Below the pieces are notes generated by a model, which saw only the letters and a list, made by a program, of their open reading frames with translations, did not search any database and had not been told where the DNA came from. Shown one piece after another: positions 5,309 through 34,763 of a stretch of 64,000 nt of DNA. A program made the translations under genes and the position numbers. The stretch comes from a virus. Lineage: Duplodnaviria > Heunggongvirae > Uroviricota > Caudoviricetes. The stretch lies in IMG/VR virus record IMGVR_UViG_3300025913_000018. The stretch is one strand, 5' to 3'. Each line of letters starts with the position of its first letter. The stretch's first letter is position 1.

Positions 5309-5554
5309 TTACGCCCCCACTTCTTCGAGGCGCCACGTCGTAGCTCTCCGCGGCCCCCGACGAGGCGTCCACCGACTCGCGAACGTCATGCACTTCTCGT
5401 GACGCATCGGGTACCCAGTGAGGTACGTCTTCTCGTCGTTGAGTCGCTCTCCGGTCCGAGGGTGAACCTGAACGACCACGACGTGATAGAGGCGCTTTCC
5501 CTCAGCGCGGGCCGCCTCGCGTTCTTTCTCAGCGTCGATTTCGAGAGGACTCAT
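5309..5554 (-). CDS. hypothetical protein
   Basis: 81-aa ORF with GGAAGAG SD. Confidence 0.45.
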   Translation of the reverse strand: MSPLEIDAEKEREAARAEGKRLYHVVVVQVHPRTGERLNDEKTYLTGYPMRHEKCMTFASRWTPRRGPRRATTWRLEEVGA

Positions 5555-5563
5555 CGCTGAGGG

Positions 5564-5938
5564 TTACTCTTCCTGGCCCAAGAAGAAATTGAGCGCCTGG
5601 CGGTACTTTTCCGAGTAGAGGAAGCAGTCCTTCCGGTGCCTCTCCACGACGCCCCATTCGAGGTCGCACAAGCGACAGCGGAACGTAGTACGTCCGTTCG
5701 TTCGCTCGATTCGAAGGGGCGTCGCAAGAAGGTCCGCCACCTTCGTCAGGGTCTCCCGAGAGGCATGGGAGACCCCATTGTCGTCGCAATCCCTTCCCTG
5801 AGCGCACCCGTTCTCGTTGACGCGTTCGGGCTGGATCTCCCCCGAGACGACGGGGCAATCCTCGTAGCCGTACTTGCACCCTCCGTGACCCGGAAGAGGG
5901 CAACAATGGGAGGGGCAACAACGTCGATCGGCGTTCAC
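5564..5938 (-). CDS. Cys-rich hypothetical protein
   Basis: 124-aa ORF with many Cys (CCPSHCCPLPGHGGC...). Confidence 0.45.
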   Translation of the reverse strand: MNADRRCCPSHCCPLPGHGGCKYGYEDCPVVSGEIQPERVNENGCAQGRDCDDNGVSHASRETLTKVADLLATPLRIERTNGRTTFRCRLCDLEWGVVERHRKDCFLYSEKYRQALNFFLGQEE

Positions 5939-6237
5939 TTCTTCGGTCTCTCTTCGTCGGCGAGGATTTTCTTCATGGTCTCGTCCGAGAGGGGCCAGGG
6001 CTGACCTGCGTGGACGAAGGCTCGGATCCCGAGGCGCTCGCTTCGGTACGGGATCTCCTCGCCTGGAGCGAACAGCTCATCCGCAAGCTTCATGACGTCA
6101 CGAGCTGCGCTGTCGTAGGCGGCCCCTAGCCCATCGCTGAACTCGGTCTCGTCGGAAGCCAGTCGACTCGATTGAGCCTCCTTCCGGAGCTTCGCCGCGA
6201 GACGTTCGAGCTTTCGAGCGATTTCGAACTTGTCCAC
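5935..6237 (-). CDS. hypothetical protein
   Basis: 100-aa ORF with ATGA coupling at 5935-5938. Confidence 0.5.
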   Translation of the reverse strand: MDKFEIARKLERLAAKLRKEAQSSRLASDETEFSDGLGAAYDSAARDVMKLADELFAPGEEIPYRSERLGIRAFVHAGQPWPLSDETMKKILADEERPKK

Positions 6238-6765
6238 CTAGGCCTCTTCGATCTTCCCCGTGGGACGAAGGGGCGCGACGACTGCCTTACGCTTCGCCAT
6301 GAACTTGTTGAACGCGTCGTTCTCGGCCGTAGCGAAGGCCTCGGCCTCCACTACGATCTTCGAGAGCCGTTTGCGAAGCGCCTCGCATTGAGGGAGCGAG
6401 AGGAAGACACCCACCCGGAACGAGGGGAGCGTGTAGAAGCCCTTCCCCGCAACCCACTCCGGCTCTTTCTGGTCGCTTTGGGAGAGGATGTAGAGGTAGT
6501 CGCTGACGTCCTTCGCGGGGACGTGGATGGTGAGTCCGTCGATCGGTTCGAGTACGTAGATCTTCCGACGGGAAGAAGCCATCCCCCCGAGATCCAGATG
6601 GCCGTCGGTAGTCGGAGTCCGATCGGGCTCGTGGAACTCCACCCGATGCTTTTCGGTCGCGTCCTTCCTCCACAGCTCCACCAGGTTGTCCGCGATCGAG
6701 TCCTCGCACAAGGTTCGAGGCGGGCTGAGATCGGCGAAGCCCGGGAACAGGTACATCCAGGTCAT
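6238..6765 (-). CDS. hypothetical protein
   Basis: Trimmed to MTWMYLFPGF... (ATG 6763-6765), overlapping the upstream stop as ATGA. Confidence 0.45.
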   Translation of the reverse strand: MTWMYLFPGFADLSPPRTLCEDSIADNLVELWRKDATEKHRVEFHEPDRTPTTDGHLDLGGMASSRRKIYVLEPIDGLTIHVPAKDVSDYLYILSQSDQKEPEWVAGKGFYTLPSFRVGVFLSLPQCEALRKRLSKIVVEAEAFATAENDAFNKFMAKRKAVVAPLRPTGKIEEA

Positions 6766-7559
6766 GCCGGCCTCCGAACGAGAGCGGGGCGGACTTGGAG
6801 GAGGTAGAGGATGTCGTCGTGGATCGCCCACTCGATGTCCAGAACCTCGAAAGACGGGAACGCGTCGCGGCACTTCTCCGTCAGCTCGACGAGCGCGTCC
6901 AGCTCGTCAGTTCCGAGAAGGAGCTTCGAGTGAGTCTCCACCTCGACCTTCAGAGTCCCGATCACGGGGCTCGGCTGGAACATGACGGTCTGGTGACCGA
7001 GACGCGCTGGAGGGTCTACCGTCTCCCCCGTGAGCCGGTACTGGTCCGGGTCGACGATCCCCTGAACGATCGCCTCCCCGAGTCCTCGAACCGCCTCGAC
7101 GACATACTCGTCGGCACCCGTTGCGGGGTTCCGAGTGAAGAGGACCCCCGAGAGTTCGGCCGGGATGAAGGTCTGGATGCAGACGGCCATTTCCGGAGCC
7201 CCCGACACCCCTAGGCGCCTTCGGTACTCCTCCGCCCGCGGCGAGTAGGCCGAAGCCTCGACGCCCCGAATAGCCTCCTCTAGGAACTTCTTCGGGACGT
7301 TCAGGCTGGTGGAGTGGATCCCGGCGAAGGAAGCCTCCACCCCGTCCTCTTTCGGAGCCGAAGAGCGAACCGCGTACGGACCCTGAAGAAGCCCCTCGAC
7401 GAGGGTTCCGATCTCGTCCGGAAGGTCTGCCACCTCCGAGACCGAGAGGGCGAGCCCGTCCGGAACCGGAAGCCCGGCACGAAGGGCGATCGCGAGGGCC
7501 GCCGTCTTCCCGCCGTAGAGGCGAGAGTCGATCGCGTCCGCGAGCGAGGTGAGGGTCAT
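6762..7559 (-). CDS. PEP synthase / pyruvate-phosphate-dikinase N-terminal (PPDK_N, ATP-grasp-like) nucleotide-binding domain protein
   Basis: YGGKTAALAIALRAGLPVPDGLALS and SSAPKEDGVEASFAGIHSTSLNV resemble the GGKAANL...GxPVPxGF and SSA..ED...SFAGQ..T motifs of PEP synthase / rifampin phosphotransferase N-domains. ATGA-coupled to the upstream gene. Confidence 0.65.
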   Translation of the reverse strand: MTLTSLADAIDSRLYGGKTAALAIALRAGLPVPDGLALSVSEVADLPDEIGTLVEGLLQGPYAVRSSAPKEDGVEASFAGIHSTSLNVPKKFLEEAIRGVEASAYSPRAEEYRRRLGVSGAPEMAVCIQTFIPAELSGVLFTRNPATGADEYVVEAVRGLGEAIVQGIVDPDQYRLTGETVDPPARLGHQTVMFQPSPVIGTLKVEVETHSKLLLGTDELDALVELTEKCRDAFPSFEVLDIEWAIHDDILYLLQVRPALVRRPA

Positions 7560-8968
7560 TCGTCGTCTCCCGTGTCCTGGTACGGGGAGGGGTGGCTGAT
7601 GTAGCCGCGATCCGAGTCGAGGCGGAGCTTCATCCCCCTCGGGTAGCGCTTCACCGCGTCCTTCACGCGGAAGATCGGGATCCGCATCTCACGGGCGATG
7701 ATCGAGAGGTGGGAAAGCTCCCCGCCGTTCTCGGTGATGATTCCGCGCGCCTTCTCGATCGCTGCGTTGTTCTCGGGCGTGTTGCTGAGGTCCTTCAGGA
7801 CGAAGATGCAGCCGGGGGATTCCCCGACGTACCCCTCGCACTCCGGAGCCGACGCCAAAACGGTGCACTCGAAATTCCCGTATTTCGCCTGGACCTCGCC
7901 CATCTTCGCGAGAGCCGCTTCCATGACAGGGTTCCGAGAGAAGGAAGATCCTTCTTCGAAGGAGATCCCCGCCCCGAGCAACCAGTCGGTGTGGTAGGGG
8001 TCGTCCATCTGCATCTTCATCCCCGAGACCGAGACTTCCTTCCATTCCGGGGCGAGATGGCGAAGGGAGTGGGAACGACGAAGGGCCCAGTTCTCGAAGG
8101 GCGCGAGGGGGACCTGGAACGTTCGACCGTCCGACGTGACGAGATCGAAGAGGTTCCCATTGGCCTGCTTCAGGACGTCCTCTCGGATCTGAACGAGCTT
8201 CGCCTGGTAGGCGATCTCCCGCTTCATGTCCTCCTCTTCTTGGAACTCGGCTTCGCACTCGGCTTCCTCGCGAGCCTCACGCTCCCCGCGGTAGTCGCGG
8301 TGGTCTTCTTCCTCGTCCGGCGACCCCATCGCTCCGATCGCGCTGATCTTGTGGCCGGCGGCGACGTACTCGCGAATGGCGTCTTCGGGGAGGAGAAGCT
8401 CGTCGCGCCAGAAGGGGGCTTCTCCGACCGGCTCGAACAGGAAGAAGCGGCAGCGTCTGTGGTCGTAGTCGCTCTTCCGGTCGCGGGGGATCTCCACGCA
8501 GATCACGCCCTCGTGAGCGTAGTGGCGGGCCCGGTTCTTCCACCATTTACGGATCAGCGCCATGTGCTCGGGCGCCGTCCCGATATCCTCGTTGGGGTCG
8601 GGCAGGTCGAGCGAAGCGGAGATCGCGTCCTCGGGGCTGAAGGCCACGACCTCGGCGTACGGGCGATACCACGCGTTCTTGATCTTCACGCGACCGGCGT
8701 AGATGAACGCCAGGGTCTTCTGGTACTTCGCCGAAGAACGGTCCTTCGCGACTCGGATCCCCTTCGACGAATCGCCGGTGAACTTCTTCAGACCCTTCAG
8801 GACGTCGATCGCGACGCCCTGAAGCTCCCCCGGATTCCCTCCCGAGAGGGACGTCTGGATCATCCGCCACGCCTTCCCCGGAGCGTCGGAGAGGAGCAAG
8901 CCCCGAGCGTGCTCGGTGATGAAGGAACCCTCGATCAGGAAGTGGGCGACGCGTTCCGTACTGGTCAT
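7556..8968 (-). CDS. protein with C-terminal PEP-utilising (phospho-histidine swivel) domain; N-terminal ~380 aa unknown
   Basis: C-terminus ARGIITENGGELSHLSIIAREMRIPIF resembles the PEP-utilizers mobile domain GG.TSHAAI.ARE.GIP with its catalytic His. An acidic EEED-rich linker sits mid-protein. Confidence 0.65.
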   Translation of the reverse strand: MTSTERVAHFLIEGSFITEHARGLLLSDAPGKAWRMIQTSLSGGNPGELQGVAIDVLKGLKKFTGDSSKGIRVAKDRSSAKYQKTLAFIYAGRVKIKNAWYRPYAEVVAFSPEDAISASLDLPDPNEDIGTAPEHMALIRKWWKNRARHYAHEGVICVEIPRDRKSDYDHRRCRFFLFEPVGEAPFWRDELLLPEDAIREYVAAGHKISAIGAMGSPDEEEDHRDYRGEREAREEAECEAEFQEEEDMKREIAYQAKLVQIREDVLKQANGNLFDLVTSDGRTFQVPLAPFENWALRRSHSLRHLAPEWKEVSVSGMKMQMDDPYHTDWLLGAGISFEEGSSFSRNPVMEAALAKMGEVQAKYGNFECTVLASAPECEGYVGESPGCIFVLKDLSNTPENNAAIEKARGIITENGGELSHLSIIAREMRIPIFRVKDAVKRYPRGMKLRLDSDRGYISHPSPYQDTGDDE

Positions 8969-9162
8969 GACGCCTCCGAGATCTTCTTCCAGGTACCCTG
9001 GTAGACCTGGCCGGCCGCCGCTTTCGCGGTCATGTGGTGGACGAAGCGCTTCGCCTTCTTCGGGTCGAGGGTGTACCCGCCTTCGAGGCCTCGCCCGGCG
9101 ATCGCCTTCGAGAGGTTCACGAGGTAGGCCCCCTGGGACATCACGACGTAGTGAGCCTTCAT
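8965..9162 (-). CDS. small hypothetical protein
   Basis: MKAHYVVMSQGAYLVNL...; GGAGGAA SD; ATGA overlap at both ends. Confidence 0.45.
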   Translation of the reverse strand: MKAHYVVMSQGAYLVNLSKAIAGRGLEGGYTLDPKKAKRFVHHMTAKAAAGQVYQGTWKKISEAS

Positions 9163-9665
9163 TTCGGTTCCTCCGGATTGGCGAGGTCTTTCATCCATCG
9201 CTGAGCGTCCGCCTTCTGGACGAAGACCAGCCAGGGGCGATCGTCGCGGTGTAGGGAAGGGACGCTCAGCGTAGTGCCCGTATCGAGCGCCCACCAGGCG
9301 TCGTGCTTCGTAGCGAGTCGACGAAGAGTGGTCGTCGGTTCGACCAACGACTGTCGGATCCGAGAGACATCCTGGAGGCGGTGCTTCATCGGACCGAGCT
9401 GGTCCTTCACGAAGTCGGTCGCCTGGACGAGGTACCGCGGATCTCCGAGGAACCAGAGGGCCTTCGCCTCGGAGTGACCGTGTTCGAGCTTCAAGATCTG
9501 AAGGTCAACGAGATGCTCTCGCATCCGACGAGTCGCTTCCCCGAGGCGTCCGTACTCGAACTCCGCCGACCCCATGTAATCGAACGTGAAGTGTCGGTTG
9601 ATCCCCTTCATGTCCTCACGGACTCGATCTCGACGGTTCACGCGCTGGACGAGGTACGGGGTCAC
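9159..9665 (-). CDS. hypothetical protein
   Basis: 168-aa ORF. Confidence 0.5.
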   Translation of the reverse strand: MTPYLVQRVNRRDRVREDMKGINRHFTFDYMGSAEFEYGRLGEATRRMREHLVDLQILKLEHGHSEAKALWFLGDPRYLVQATDFVKDQLGPMKHRLQDVSRIRQSLVEPTTTLRRLATKHDAWWALDTGTTLSVPSLHRDDRPWLVFVQKADAQRWMKDLANPEEPK

Positions 9666-9856
9666 TTTCGGTCTCCCTTGAGGCAGAAGACCAGGCGAAG
9701 TCGACCGGTCACCGGGACTCCGTTCGTGGCGTCCCCCTGCCGGATCTTACGCGCGACCATGGCGATCGCCCGCCCTCGCTTCCGACCGTACGAAACCGTG
9801 TCGAAAGGAACGGGGTCCCCTTCGCTCTCGAATCGAATCCAGAAAGCACGTCTCAT
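9662..9856 (-). CDS. small hypothetical protein (64 aa)
   Basis: MRRAFWIRFESEGDPVPF...; ATG 6 nt downstream of promoter motif instance b. Confidence 0.45.
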   Translation of the reverse strand: MRRAFWIRFESEGDPVPFDTVSYGRKRGRAIAMVARKIRQGDATNGVPVTGRLRLVFCLKGDRK

Positions 9857-9862
9857 GCCAGA

Positions 9863-9892
9863 GTAACGAACGACCTCCGCCCCTTTACACTC
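9863..9892 (-). promoter_or_regulatory. conserved 30-bp promoter-like motif, instance b
   Basis: Plus strand gtaacgaacga-N11-ttacactc. Confidence 0.6.
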
Positions 9893-10391
9893 CCGGAGCG
9901 AAGCCCTGGCTCTCGACGAAGGACGCCAGGGTCTCGATGGCCGTTTCCAGCTCGATCTTCCGGATCGCCTCGTCCACGATCTTCCGGTGGTCGAAGCACC
10001 AGACGACGGAGTCCAGATCTCGAAGGGAGACCATCTTGAAGTCCTTCGCGTCGTCGCCCGCGACGGGGAGCTGGTTCGGATCTTTCGGAGACCCGAGGAA
10101 GGCGACCGAGACAACGTGCTGACGAGGATCTCGGGCCGGGTCCGAGTACACGCCGATGAGGCGCATCTTCTCGCCGTCGATGTCCAGGTTGGTCTCCTCC
10201 TTCGCCTCCCGAAGGGCAGCCGTCTCGACCGCCTCCCCGTAGTCCACGAAGCCCCCTGGAAGGGCGAGACCCAGGGGCGGGTTCCGACGCTCGATCACGA
10301 CGATCTTCGAGTCGAGGATCTCCGGAGCCCGGTAGAGGATCACGAGATCCACCGCGAGGGACGGGCACTTGTATTCGGCTTTGGAAGTCAT
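9885..10391 (-). CDS. NUDIX hydrolase
   Basis: Nudix box LPGGFVDYGEAVETAALREAKEETNL (GX5EX7REUXEEXGU). Start MTSKAEYK overlaps the upstream stop as ATGA. Confidence 0.8.
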   Translation of the reverse strand: MTSKAEYKCPSLAVDLVILYRAPEILDSKIVVIERRNPPLGLALPGGFVDYGEAVETAALREAKEETNLDIDGEKMRLIGVYSDPARDPRQHVVSVAFLGSPKDPNQLPVAGDDAKDFKMVSLRDLDSVVWCFDHRKIVDEAIRKIELETAIETLASFVESQGFAPGV

Positions 10392-10615
10392 GACGGCCAC
10401 TCGGCCCCTTCTTGGGTATCGGTCCAGTACAATCGAGTCGTGAAGGTGTCGTCGTCCCCGTCGAAACGAGGAGAGAACGCCGCGCACACCTTCACGCGAC
10501 GTCCGGTGTTCTTCTGGAAGTACTGACCGTACACCCCTGGCTCGTAGACCCACTCGCCTCCGTGGGTACGCCGAAGACGCTCGATCAGCCGATCTCGTTT
10601 TCGACGAGAGGTCAT
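10388..10615 (-). CDS. small hypothetical protein
   Basis: MTSRRKRDRLIERLRR...; ATGA overlap. Confidence 0.4.
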   Translation of the reverse strand: MTSRRKRDRLIERLRRTHGGEWVYEPGVYGQYFQKNTGRRVKVCAAFSPRFDGDDDTFTTRLYWTDTQEGAEWPS

Positions 10616-11430: not shown

Positions 11431-11964
11431 TCAGAACAGGGGAAGGTGGCCGAGTGAGATCACGTCTTCTCGTCGAGTTCCCTCGGTGAAGACTGCGAGA
11501 GTGGCGACGTGGGTCGCTCCGATCTTCGTCACCAACGCCTTCAACGCGTCGAGAGTTCCGCCCGACGACACGACATCGTCCACGAAGGCGACGCGCTTTC
11601 CTCGGAGGCGCTCCACGTCCTCTTCGGAGAGATAGAGTGTCTGGACCCGATCCGTAGTGATGCTCTTCACCTCGACCGAAACAGTCTCCCCCATGTATGG
11701 CTTCCGCTCCTTCCGAGCAACGAAGGTAGGGAGTCCGCTCTCACGTCCAAGAACGTGGAGAAGAGCTTGAGCCTTCCCGTCCGGCATGAGGAGCGCTTTC
11801 ACTCCAGACGGGAGCTTCGCTGCGAGAGCCTTACCGGCGGCCTCGGCTAGATTCCAGTCCCCGAGGATGTTGAACAGGGCCACTCGAACGCCTGGAGCTA
11901 CCTCGCGAATCGGCAGGAGCCGTATTGCGGGGCCGATCTCTATCTCGACGAATTCTTCGCCCAT
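11431..11964 (-). CDS. type I phosphoribosyltransferase (APRT/HGPRT-like)
   Basis: PRPP-binding motif VAFVDDVVSSGGTL; ~178 aa from MGEEFVEIEIG with GGGCGTAAGC SD. Confidence 0.7.
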   Translation of the reverse strand: MGEEFVEIEIGPAIRLLPIREVAPGVRVALFNILGDWNLAEAAGKALAAKLPSGVKALLMPDGKAQALLHVLGRESGLPTFVARKERKPYMGETVSVEVKSITTDRVQTLYLSEEDVERLRGKRVAFVDDVVSSGGTLDALKALVTKIGATHVATLAVFTEGTRREDVISLGHLPLF

Positions 11965-11972
11965 AGGTTTGC

Positions 11973-12248
11973 TTACGCCCTTCGATCCAAGTGCTCGCGC
12001 TTCGCCAATACGGCCTTCACGCGCGCTTCGTAGTCGAGGGCCTCCTTCCAACAGATCATGAAATCGGCCCGATCTTTCTCCGACATTCCAACGCACTGGG
12101 AGAAGTGTTCCCCGCAAGAGTCGCAGACGTTCCCGTTCGAAGCCCGCCGAGCAATCTTCAGAACTTGGAGGAGACGTTGAGTCGAGAGCTTCGCCAACTT
12201 CTCGTCGGGAAGGGGGTGGGGGGCCTTGAACCAACTCGCCCAAGTCAT
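11973..12248 (-). CDS. small hypothetical protein with CDSCGEH motif
   Basis: MTWASWFKAPHPLP...; ATGA coupling. Confidence 0.4.
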   Translation of the reverse strand: MTWASWFKAPHPLPDEKLAKLSTQRLLQVLKIARRASNGNVCDSCGEHFSQCVGMSEKDRADFMICWKEALDYEARVKAVLAKREHLDRRA

Positions 12249-12880
12249 GGCTCGTACCTCGATCGATCGAAACCTTCGGGAGGAGACCAACCCTCGGCGA
12301 GGGCCTCCTTCATCCACTCTCGGAGCGGAGGCTTTCGCCCGAGGAAGGTGTAGAGCCGGCACAGGTCGTCGTAGTCGTCCCGAAGGGCGAGAAGCAGTCC
12401 TTCGAGATCTTCGAGCTTCTTCGCCTCGTCGCCGTTCGTGGCGTACCAAACCGAACCTTCAGCGTCGACCGCCCACCACTCCGTGGGGTCCTCTCTCCCG
12501 GAGAAGATACCTCCCCCACCTCGAAGAGGCAGAGGCGGGAAACCCAGGAACTCCACCATCCATGGGAAGTTGTCTCGGTCCCTGACCTCGACCATGCAGC
12601 GGCCTTCGACGATCATCGGGTTCTGAGTCGCCACCCCCCAGAACACCGGCTGGTACCCTTCCGGAAACTTGCCGGCCTTCCTCGCCTCGAAGAGAACGTG
12701 ATCGAGGCGAGCCTTCTCCCGAGCGCGCTCGGCGTCGATCATGCGCATTCGGATCTCGTGAGCCTCGATGTTCTTCCGCTCGACCTCGATACGGGCCTCG
12801 AAGCCTGCGCGCTCCTTCTCCGTGAACGTGGCGAGACGTTCCTCGGGAGAAGCCTTCTTGTAGCGGTTGAACGCGGTCAT
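12245..12880 (-). CDS. hypothetical protein, paralogue family A member 1
   Basis: 211 aa, similar to 13682..14368: KAGKFPEGYQPVFW vs AEGKFPADERFIPTF; C-terminus LGRKPPLREWMKEALAEGWSPPEGF vs LGRKPPLPEWIRTALQKGWTPPSDF. Confidence 0.55.
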   Translation of the reverse strand: MTAFNRYKKASPEERLATFTEKERAGFEARIEVERKNIEAHEIRMRMIDAERAREKARLDHVLFEARKAGKFPEGYQPVFWGVATQNPMIVEGRCMVEVRDRDNFPWMVEFLGFPPLPLRGGGGIFSGREDPTEWWAVDAEGSVWYATNGDEAKKLEDLEGLLLALRDDYDDLCRLYTFLGRKPPLREWMKEALAEGWSPPEGFDRSRYEP

Positions 12881-13158: not shown

Positions 13159-13685
13159 GTTGAGGGACTTTCGTACTTGGCCTTCAGCCGTTCGTACTCC
13201 CTACGCTCTTTCGACTCGTCTTCCTGAGCCAAGCGCTCGATGTAAGAGTTCGTCTCACTGAGAAACAGTGAGATTCCTTCTTGCACTTTCTCCATGCGAG
13301 TCTCGTACTCCGCCAGGCGTTTCTCGTAGTCCTCGGTATGGACCTTCCGAACGGTCTCGATCTTCAGGCACGCGTCGTCGTGGTAGGGGACCGCAGTCAC
13401 CCGAGTCGACTCGAAGATCTTCTTCAGATCGAGGATGTCCTCAGCCCGGTGAGGGGTACGTTCCAGGACGAAGGCGATGATGTCGGAGAGAAGATTGCCG
13501 TGGTCGTACTCGTCCAGAAGGTTGACCTCTTCGTAGGTCTCTTCGGGCGGGGACGTGGACATCCCCGGAAGGACCGGGGCGCCGAATCGCCGAAGCTTCG
13601 GGATGGAGAGCCACACCCTCCGGGCCTCCTCCCAAGAGGCGCGGGTCTCCACCCCCAAGGCCAAGATCTCTTCCTTCGTCCTCAT
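13155..13685 (-). CDS. hypothetical protein
   Basis: Trimmed to MRTKEEILALGVE (ATG 13683-13685), overlapping the stop of 13682..14368 as ATGA. Confidence 0.45.
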   Translation of the reverse strand: MRTKEEILALGVETRASWEEARRVWLSIPKLRRFGAPVLPGMSTSPPEETYEEVNLLDEYDHGNLLSDIIAFVLERTPHRAEDILDLKKIFESTRVTAVPYHDDACLKIETVRKVHTEDYEKRLAEYETRMEKVQEGISLFLSETNSYIERLAQEDESKERREYERLKAKYESPST

Positions 13686-14368
13686 ACGGTCTCCTCGAAG
13701 TCTTCGCGCCGGAAGTCGGAAGGCGGGGTCCACCCCTTCTGAAGGGCTGTTCGAATCCACTCGGGAAGCGGCGGCTTCCTCCCGAGAAGTTCGTGGATGG
13801 TCTGGAGATCCGAGAGATCTTCCTTCGCCTCCGCGAGTAGCTGGTCGCTCGTGACTCGGCCGAGGCTACCACCATGGGCCGAGTCCATCCAGCAGACTCC
13901 GGCCGAATCGATCGCCCAACACGTCGGGATATCCCAACCGGTGTGCCAGACGGAACCCGTTCCGCGAAGCGGGAGCACCGGAAGGCCTTCCCACTCTTCT
14001 TCGATGTAGAACTCGGTGAGACGTTCTCGACTTCCCTTCGGACTCTCGATCCGAACGAGATGGTCGACCATGTAGGGGTCTCTCCCGTCCTTGTAGCGGA
14101 AGGTCGGGATGAAGCGCTCGTCCGCGGGAAACTTCCCCTCAGCGCGGGCCTTCGCGGTGATCTCGCTTTCTACCCGCGCGAGCCTCTCGTTCTCCCGAGC
14201 GAGGTTCTCATCGCTGAGGCGAGCGCGCCGCAAGCTGTCGTCGGCGCGACGCGTGGCGATGTCCTGGATCTCGGTCCTCAGCTCCGGGGAAGCCTTCTGA
14301 CGCTCCTCGTAGGAGAGGGAGATGAACGCGTCGAGCTTCTCGATTTCTTCTTCGGTGGGGGCGCTCAT
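13682..14368 (-). CDS. hypothetical protein, paralogue family A member 2
   Basis: 228 aa; see 12245..12880. Confidence 0.55.
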   Translation of the reverse strand: MSAPTEEEIEKLDAFISLSYEERQKASPELRTEIQDIATRRADDSLRRARLSDENLARENERLARVESEITAKARAEGKFPADERFIPTFRYKDGRDPYMVDHLVRIESPKGSRERLTEFYIEEEWEGLPVLPLRGTGSVWHTGWDIPTCWAIDSAGVCWMDSAHGGSLGRVTSDQLLAEAKEDLSDLQTIHELLGRKPPLPEWIRTALQKGWTPPSDFRREDFEETV

Positions 14369-33869: not shown

Positions 33870-34763
33870 TCACGGAAACTTTCTCGTCGGGGCTCTCGAT
33901 AGGCCCGGCGGACGGATCAACTCGTCCGTGAGCTTCGAGGGGAGATCGTTCGTCTTCCCGAGGAGCGACCCGAGCCCCAAACAGAGCGCCGCGAGGGTGT
34001 CTACGTCGCCTCCGAGGGCGACCGCCTGTACGAGAAGCTCGTGGAGGGTCTCGTGCCGTAGGAGGAGCCCGAAGGCGGCCTCAACGATCATCCTCCCGCT
34101 CGTAGAACCGACCCTCCATTGGACCGGATCCCAGAACCGAGGGTCGGCCCATCCGAGGTGGGACATTGTGGTCGTGAGACCGGTACGAGTCCCGTTGTAG
34201 GCCGCCAGCGCCACGGCCACCGCCGCGTCGATCGAGTCCGGATGGTGGTGGGTAGCGCGAGCCTGAGCTATCGCCGCCGTCATGACGTGATACCCGGCGA
34301 ACTTCTTCTCACCGGTGAATGGGCTGATCAAGCCGACCGGAATCGCTCGCATCGCCGCCCCGCACGTGTCCTTCAGGTTCGTCTCGATTCCTTCGCGGCA
34401 TCTCGCCATGAGGTCGAGGCCTGGTGTCACGCTTCGAGCGGCCTCGGGGAGAACGGCTCTCATCCGGCCGCCATAGCCGGGGGCGGGGTCGAACTTGTAC
34501 TCGGCGACGAACTCGTCCGCGAAGTCCACCGACCTCCACCAGAACTCCGTCTTCATGACCGCGAGCGTCATCTGGGTGTCGTCGGTCGTTCCTCCCGGTC
34601 GATGGTTCCGATCGAGCCCGTGGACTCGGTAGGTGAGCCCGTCGTTGTTCTCCTTCACGAAGGAGAGAGGACGCATCTCGAACCCGGCCCCGTAAGCGTC
34701 GCCCACCATGAAGGCGAGAAGCCACTCGGAAACGGTCTCGACCTCGGGATAGTGCTCAGACAT
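33870..34763 (-). CDS. ADP-ribosylglycohydrolase (ARH/DraG family)
   Basis: N-terminal GDAYGAGFE, GGTTDDTQMTLAV, C-terminal GGDVDTLAALCLGLGSLLG; 297 aa. Confidence 0.8.
   Translation of the reverse strand: MSEHYPEVETVSEWLLAFMVGDAYGAGFEMRPLSFVKENNDGLTYRVHGLDRNHRPGGTTDDTQMTLAVMKTEFWWRSVDFADEFVAEYKFDPAPGYGGRMRAVLPEAARSVTPGLDLMARCREGIETNLKDTCGAAMRAIPVGLISPFTGEKKFAGYHVMTAAIAQARATHHHPDSIDAAVAVALAAYNGTRTGLTTTMSHLGWADPRFWDPVQWRVGSTSGRMIVEAAFGLLLRHETLHELLVQAVALGGDVDTLAALCLGLGSLLGKTNDLPSKLTDELIRPPGLSRAPTRKFP

Follow-up and report, generated by a model that had tools for sequence, protein, structure and literature searches.

To our knowledge, dikinases with a swivel domain are known from central metabolism, antibiotic resistance, pigment biosynthesis and aromatic catabolism, and not as a phage function. 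HpeHI of Rhodococcus, CreHI of Corynebacterium and PpsAB, the phenylphosphate synthase of Thauera, are characterized two-component small-molecule dikinases, in which a gene for the substrate-binding and swivel domains is normally followed by one for the ATP-grasp component (PMC12167813). The signature T/SxxGGxxxH has been described for HpeH, PpsA, CreH and the rifampin (RIF) phosphotransferase RPH; replacing the His by Gln abolishes activity in HpeHI and PpsAB, their H component can by itself move phosphate between substrates, and the HpeH:HpeI complex is only transient and driven by electrostatics (PMC12167813). Here, we analysed a stretch of 64,000 nucleotides from a giant phage of the Caudoviricetes (IMG/VR record IMGVR_UViG_3300025913_000018), referred to below as the window and forming part of a contig of 472,929 bp, in which two adjacent minus-strand genes, A and B, probably encode a system of this kind.

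Judging from their sequences, we put at roughly 70% the probability that the phage encodes, in A and B, an ATP-dependent dikinase of two components that works by a mechanism of the RPH/HpeHI type. Both open reading frames (ORFs) and their ATGA junction were recovered exactly as described in an earlier note on this DNA, and the phage setting that it assumed was supported. The pair is laid out as follows, in window coordinates.

7556–8968, minus strand: gene A, a 470 aa ORF predicted to encode a phage-family-specific module and a C-terminal phospho-His swivel domain (‘H-type’ component)
6762–7559, minus strand: gene B, a 265 aa ORF predicted to encode a minimal stand-alone PPDK_N ATP-grasp (‘I-type’ component)
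7556–7559, minus strand: ATGA overlap of the A stop with the B start, read from the sequence
7567–7570, minus strand: GGAG Shine–Dalgarno of B, 7 nt 5′ of the ATG, within the 3′ end of A
8324–8968, minus strand: N-terminal α/β domain of A, aa 1–215, pI 8.8, with near-invariant R22, G59, R102-P103, R146 and W187
8162–8323, minus strand: disordered acidic linker of A, then a long acidic helix, aa 216–269, computed net charge −11
7874–8161, minus strand: middle domain of A, aa 270–365, the proposed acceptor (second) active site, holding invariant D322/H326/D328
7982–8008, minus strand: motif D321-D-P-Y-H-T-D-W329 of A, with D322, H326 and D328 invariant in 100 diverse representatives
7589–7873, minus strand: phospho-histidine swivel domain of A, aa 366–460, within which the PF00391 match lies
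7709–7711, minus strand: codon of the catalytic His420 of A, invariant in the 100 representatives and in 46/46 locus homologs

The domain assignments made in the earlier note were borne out when the Pfam hidden Markov models (HMMs) were run. In A, the phosphoenolpyruvate (PEP)-utilizers model (PF00391) matched aa 385–455 (E 3.2e-13; 49.5 bits against a cutoff of 23.1), and no further Pfam match was obtained for this protein even at E ≤ 1. A contains the motif GGELSHLSIIAREMRIPIF, with His420; the swivel motif reads T412-E-N-G415-G416-E-L-S-H420 (T412-x2-G415-G416-x3-H420), in which Ser419 precedes His420, and the domain lacks the regulatory Thr found two residues before the His in PEP synthase. 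The alignment check on the catalytic His also came out as the note had predicted, with full conservation among both the representatives and the locus homologs.

For B, the PPDK_N model (PF01326) matched aa 59–261 (E 3e-48; 165 bits against a cutoff of 27). The best match in the PDB was 9GOJ (E 2.7e-24), the structure of HpeI, which supplies the ATP-grasp of HpeHI; PEP synthase and the ATP-grasp of RPH came next. The alignment of B to HpeI falls into two blocks (aa 10–54 and 61–250), with approximately 64 residues of the HpeI helical insert absent. B retains the GGK, AVRSSAxxED...SFAG, DIEW and LLQxRP motifs, and its K18, R65, T84 and E243 align with Lys22, Arg117, Thr136 and Glu297 of RPH-Lm, which position the ATP phosphates and Mg2+. 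These features mark B as a complete yet minimal ATP-grasp of the two-component-dikinase type. Its relatives in a database of 5.8 billion proteins form a very large family of PPDK_N-only proteins (approx. 255–285 aa, 44–48% full-length identity), labelled ‘pyruvate, water dikinase’ in the source databases; the short stand-alone ones come from Actinomycetota, Cyanobacteria, Chloroflexota, and Alpha- and Deltaproteobacteria.

By analogy with HpeHI, PpsAB and RPH, A and B would form a transient complex and share one reaction. Mg-ATP would be bound first by the minimal ATP-grasp, B. The swivel of A would then dock on B, where His420 would attack the β-phosphate to give His420~P, AMP leaving and the γ-phosphate being lost as inorganic phosphate (Pi). 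Finally, the swivel would swing back to the body of A and pass its phosphate to an acceptor at the D322/H326/D328 site, possibly with a contribution from the basic N-terminal domain. The net reaction would be ATP + acceptor + H2O → AMP + Pi + acceptor-P. The earlier note had likewise deduced a phosphotransferase that depends on ATP and works through phospho-His, and the analysis supported this deduction.

The proposed acceptor site was derived from an alignment of 100 diverse representatives, at approximately 30% identity, that were drawn from an exhaustive HMM search and none of which was selected by motif (alignment A5). Only eight columns of this alignment are invariant: G59, P103, D322, H326, D328, G415, G416 and H420, and A has all eight of these family residues. 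The D-x3-H-x-D motif is thus constrained like the phospho-His loop and resembles a second active site, so we propose D322/H326/D328 of the middle domain as a putative one. This domain is the most conserved part shared with the phiCbK-type homologs. The loci from the IMG/VR, metagenome and species-genome scans described below were fetched with patterns based on D-x3-H-x-D, which makes the presence of the motif there circular; this does not apply to A5.

A matches phrog_11532, annotated as of unknown function, over its full length (E 1e-46). Homologs, all annotated as hypothetical, were recovered by tblastn from 40 phage records. The one in Virus Rctr197k is matched over its full length (37%); others are in Vibrio phages, a Brevundimonas phage, Caulobacter phage Seuss (gp102) and jumbo phages of the phiCbK type (gp239). 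Among the phrog_11532 proteins are those of phiCbK, Seuss and Rctr197k (Rctr197k_130) and a ‘PEP utilizing enzyme’ of Vibrio phage VP-1. When 1.84 billion representatives were searched exhaustively with a profile, 591 clusters were obtained at E ≤ 1e-30, and the best 150 of these are nearly all full-length proteins of 420–580 aa. Scanning viral contigs with the single A protein returned nothing, and an alignment-based scan found loci; the IMG/VR scan gave 27 and the metagenome scan 34, many on contigs of 100–580 kb, while 185,579 species genomes scanned with a pattern produced one match only, on a contig of a Planctomycetota metagenome-assembled genome. P0007 and P0006 are carried by contigs of 424 kb and 848 kb, respectively. 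A structure search of BFVD with A returned members of its own family only. The family is large, phage-specific and essentially restricted to phages, with hundreds of clusters at 50% identity. The earlier note missed this family, as it missed the natural fusions and the lack of an ATP-grasp partner in most members, both described below.

To follow the second component, an HMM built from 120 B-family proteins was run on six-frame translations of all fetched loci, comprising 46 distinct near-full-length A homologs. A separate B lies downstream of A, directly or one small ORF away, in 6 of the 46 (L004, L006, L010, L042, L046 and the window itself, L007), and the A proteins of these six lineages are 40–68% identical. 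In two others, A and the ATP-grasp are fused in the order A-module, swivel, C-terminal ATP-grasp, a circular permutation of RPH; both fusions come from AT-rich metagenomic phage-like contigs. The first (L075, 5266–7263, plus strand) encodes 665 aa, with a PPDK_N match above the cutoff (33.4 bits) and PEP-utilizers at aa 400–451. The second (L077, approx. 5455–7608, plus strand) encodes 718 aa, with a weaker match and a GG loop altered to G-T-K-T-A-H. When the fused L075 protein was searched against the big database, only L075 itself was found. Neighbour-joining trees, computed without support values, place the A proteins of all six B carriers, the window among them, in a single nested clade; the two fusions make up a separate deep branch, and the phage B proteins lie apart from the bacterial stand-alone clade. 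Across 35 loci, the only broadly conserved neighbour of A was B, in one clade. The conserved adjacency and the natural fusions, taken as a Rosetta-stone argument, indicate that the A family and PPDK_N ATP-grasps cooperate where both are present. A 283-aa gene downstream of the A homolog of L009 was considered as a divergent B and rejected, having no similarity to it; no Pfam domain was found in Seuss gp101 (688 aa), the neighbour of the Seuss homolog.

Conservation of the pair among relatives, proposed in the earlier note as a check, is therefore partial: it holds for the six lineages of one clade and for the two fusions, but for 32 of the 46 homologs the surrounding sequence, at least 2.5 kb and usually 6–10 kb, contains no ATP-grasp gene, the remaining six being on contigs too short to judge. 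This majority is one of the points that weigh against a two-component dikinase. The complete 85-kb genome of phage Seuss has no B-like ORF even at an HMM E ≤ 10, and tblastn at E ≤ 1e-3 found no match to B in phiCbK or Rctr197k. Given the B-less majority and Seuss, the family can evidently work without a phage-encoded ATP-grasp, and B is possibly auxiliary. Profile and structure comparisons detected no relative of known function for the acceptor module of A, and the second half-reaction, in which the phosphate would reach an acceptor, is the step that we purely infer. The Alphafold2 model of A, built on a 13-sequence alignment, has a mean predicted local distance difference test score (pLDDT) of 82 but a predicted template modelling score of only 0.47, so the relative placement of its domains is not reliable; it shows the acidic helix at aa 226–269 (44 residues) and a pLDDT below 50 at aa 215–226.

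These observations allow for a different donor. It is possible, though we lean away from it, that the A family is a host-dependent phospho-relay tap, in which the swivel His is charged by a host enzyme and the phosphate passed to an acceptor of the phage's choosing, B being a later add-on that gave the window clade donor independence. Candidate donors under this scheme, to be taken equally tentatively, would be the ATP-grasp of PEP synthase or pyruvate phosphate dikinase (PPDK), a stand-alone HpeI-like protein, or Enzyme I of the phosphotransferase system (PTS) with PEP. The absence of a nearby ATP-grasp in most homologs, and of any of B type from the whole Seuss genome, fits such a scheme, as do the nesting of all B carriers in one clade, which suggests gain of B, and the separation of phage B proteins from the bacterial ones; the transient, electrostatic nature of the HpeH/HpeI complex also makes cross-talk with a foreign ATP-grasp conceivable. 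However, there is no evidence of any host enzyme phosphorylating a foreign swivel domain, and the deep-branching fusions could instead mean that an ATP-grasp was ancestral and repeatedly lost. Since B is present in the window, the mechanism there would in any case be unchanged.

A second alternative concerns the acceptor and not the donor. The acceptor could be a protein, making A and B a protein kinase that acts on a host or phage protein in takeover or counter-defence, in the manner of VadK. The position of A amid small early-type genes is compatible with this, as is the size of its module (approx. 375 aa, two domains and a long acidic helix), which is suited to macromolecular recognition, and VadK of Mycobacterium tuberculosis illustrates that a protein with a PPDK-type ATP-grasp and swivel needs no PEP/pyruvate domain to autophosphorylate on His and serve as a regulator. 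We nevertheless regard a protein acceptor as unlikely: the characterized dikinases of RPH/HpeHI type all use small-molecule hydroxyls, no conserved neighbouring gene points to a protein partner, and neither A nor B matched the PADLOC defence-system models at E ≤ 0.01, nor was there any match to anti-defence models.

It is very unlikely that the swivel is non-catalytic, with A serving as a decoy or phosphate sink that blocks host PEP-utilizing enzymes, or in a regulatory role like the C-terminal PEP-utilizer domain of Geobacillus pyruvate kinase; most family members do lack a cognate ATP-grasp, but 100 representatives at approximately 30% identity show no variation at all in His420 and the GG loop, a second invariant acidic/His motif is present, and an ATP-grasp has been recruited repeatedly, as neighbour and as fusion, for which a passive decoy would have no need. 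An auxiliary metabolic pair, whether a split PEP synthase/PPDK making PEP or a rifampin phosphotransferase, was rejected on domain content and curated cutoffs and is almost certainly wrong: the naming of B-like proteins and the matches to the NCBIfam models for PEP synthase, PPDK, RPH and PigC/RedH point that way, but those matches are partial, covering the ATP-grasp or the swivel only, all are far below the curated cutoffs (149.9 bits against 883 for the best), and neither protein has a PEP/pyruvate-binding TIM-barrel.

For the two-component dikinase, which we prefer, we lean towards an acceptor hydroxyl carried by a small molecule or a nucleotide-like compound that many hosts share, because the family spans phages of unrelated hosts and sits among early-type small genes. 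A bolder proposal, which we find unlikely, is that the phrog_11532 module represents a new type of acceptor domain found in phages alone, the family tapping a host phospho-His or ATP-grasp enzyme in most phages (and its own ATP-grasp in the window clade) so as to phosphorylate a conserved host or phage molecule for takeover or counter-defence. An immune-signalling nucleotide, a compound derived from NAD or ADP-ribose, a nucleic-acid end and a core host protein would be candidate targets on that proposal, and we hold them with the same reserve.

At the junction, gacgaATGAccctc, the TGA stop of A overlaps the ATG of B, and an identical 4-nt overlap is found in L004, L006 and the bacterial cassettes discussed below. 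A 65-aa gene upstream of A and a 175-aa gene downstream of B are likewise ATGA-joined, with GGAGG Shine–Dalgarno sequences, so that a run of four or more genes (65 aa, A, B and 175 aa; window 6762–9162, minus strand) is coupled in this manner. Because both flanking genes are coupled in the same way, tight translational coupling seems to be a local rule and not a mark of the A–B pair. A scan of 5500–10500 detected no promoter or terminator above chance inside the block. The region around A consists of small early-type genes with no assigned function.

Several other genes of the window and of related loci were noted. The window encodes a NUDIX hydrolase (9888–10391, minus strand; PF00293, E 7e-20), a phosphoribosyltransferase-domain protein (11434–11964, minus strand; PF00156, E 2e-8) and an ADP-ribosylglycohydrolase (33873–34763, minus strand; PF03747, E 4e-28), which together suggest handling of nucleotides, NAD or ADP-ribose by the phage. 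In L044, an ADP_ribosyl_GH gene lies approximately 1 kb from the A homolog. In L009, the A homolog (P0012) is located between a Thg1-like gene (tRNA-His guanylyltransferase family) and a T4 RNA ligase 1-type gene (1524–2576 and 8262–9455); this RNA-repair-like neighbourhood could hint at a nucleic-acid-related acceptor. Insertion sequence genes are found a few kb from A homologs in L004 (3957–5009) and L043 (6839–8002), namely an IS1595-type DDE transposase and an OrfB_IS605/Cas12f-like TnpB. Two window ORFs at 12245–12880 (211 aa) and 13682–14368 (228 aa), both on the minus strand, are paralog-like, sharing a C-terminal LGRKPPL(R/P)EW...GW(S/T)PP and an internal LPLRG(G/T)G, and neither has a Pfam or PHROG match. 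The GC content of the window is 60–64%, and many long ORFs lie opposite real genes; one of 470 aa (7592–9004, plus strand) is an exact mirror of A. The large plus-strand ORFs tested mostly lacked a Pfam match and are probably shadow ORFs.

Proteins of this phage family join a phospho-His carrier, itself strictly conserved, to an uncharacterized two-domain module with an invariant Asp/His/Asp site of its own. The window clade, along with the rare fusions, is the most tractable entry point into the function of phrog_11532: as an ATP-grasp comes with it, two proteins and ATP should suffice to reconstitute the whole reaction, and this would turn the question of function into a direct substrate screen. 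The B-less majority poses the question of whether a phage protein is charged by a host phosphotransfer enzyme. If the bolder proposal above were correct, phages would have a class of enzyme, new to them, that uses the chemistry of dikinases. We found no earlier description in the literature of the acceptor module, its phage-only spread, the B-less majority or the swivel-then-ATP-grasp fusions. A literature search for ‘PEP-utilizing enzyme’ in phage yielded only an unrelated proteomics table, and in a survey of NAD and ADP-ribose in viruses, ATP-grasp is mentioned for ligases only.

Neither the splitting of the enzyme nor its gene order nor its phospho-His chemistry, on the other hand, is new. 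The earlier note had presented the split and the ‘permuted’ domain order as unusual, a view that was not supported, because a swivel gene followed by an ATP-grasp gene is the standard two-component cassette, seen in HpeHI, CreHI and PpsAB and in all three bacterial loci examined; the architecture is thus less surprising than that note held, and the size and conservation of the family are of more interest. Like these characterized systems, A and B are two polypeptides, one with an acceptor part and a C-terminal swivel bearing T/S-x2-GG-x3-H, the other a separate PPDK_N ATP-grasp, encoded by adjacent genes with H before I in the window, the six phage lineages and the three bacterial loci. A has a Ser before the catalytic His, as PpsA and CreH do, and resembles all three systems in lacking the regulatory Thr two residues before that His. 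Unlike HpeH, CreH, PpsA and RPH, however, aa 1–375 of A are not homologous to a RIF-binding-type domain (e.g. Rph_4th, PF27448). B is also shortened relative to its counterparts (265 aa against approx. 340–387 aa), the A–B pair is phage-encoded and has no aromatic-catabolism context, and most members of the A family have no I component.

The three bacterial pairs (L037, L038 and L039), themselves uncharacterized, consist of ‘Rph_4th+PEP-utilizers’, or PEP-utilizers alone, followed by a short PPDK_N, with the same 4-nt overlap as in the window in each case. They differ in that the upstream partner carries an RPH-type domain (PF27448) where the phage partner carries the phrog_11532 module, and only the swivel aligns between the two (hhalign). 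RPH (PDB 5HV1/5FBS) is a single chain of ATP-grasp, RIF-binding domain and swivel, an organization that A and B do not share, and the RPH model NF041857 scored 110.7 bits for B and 17.4 bits for A against a cutoff of 999. PEP synthase, PPDK and PTS Enzyme I have the swivel phospho-His domain in common with A, and the first two also have PPDK_N in common with B, whereas A and B lack the PEP/pyruvate TIM-barrel and the HPr-binding subdomain and differ in domain order. With the phrog_11532 phage proteins, A shares the N-terminal domain, the middle domain, the swivel and the invariant residues; the cultured members have no ATP-grasp neighbour, whereas the window clade has one.

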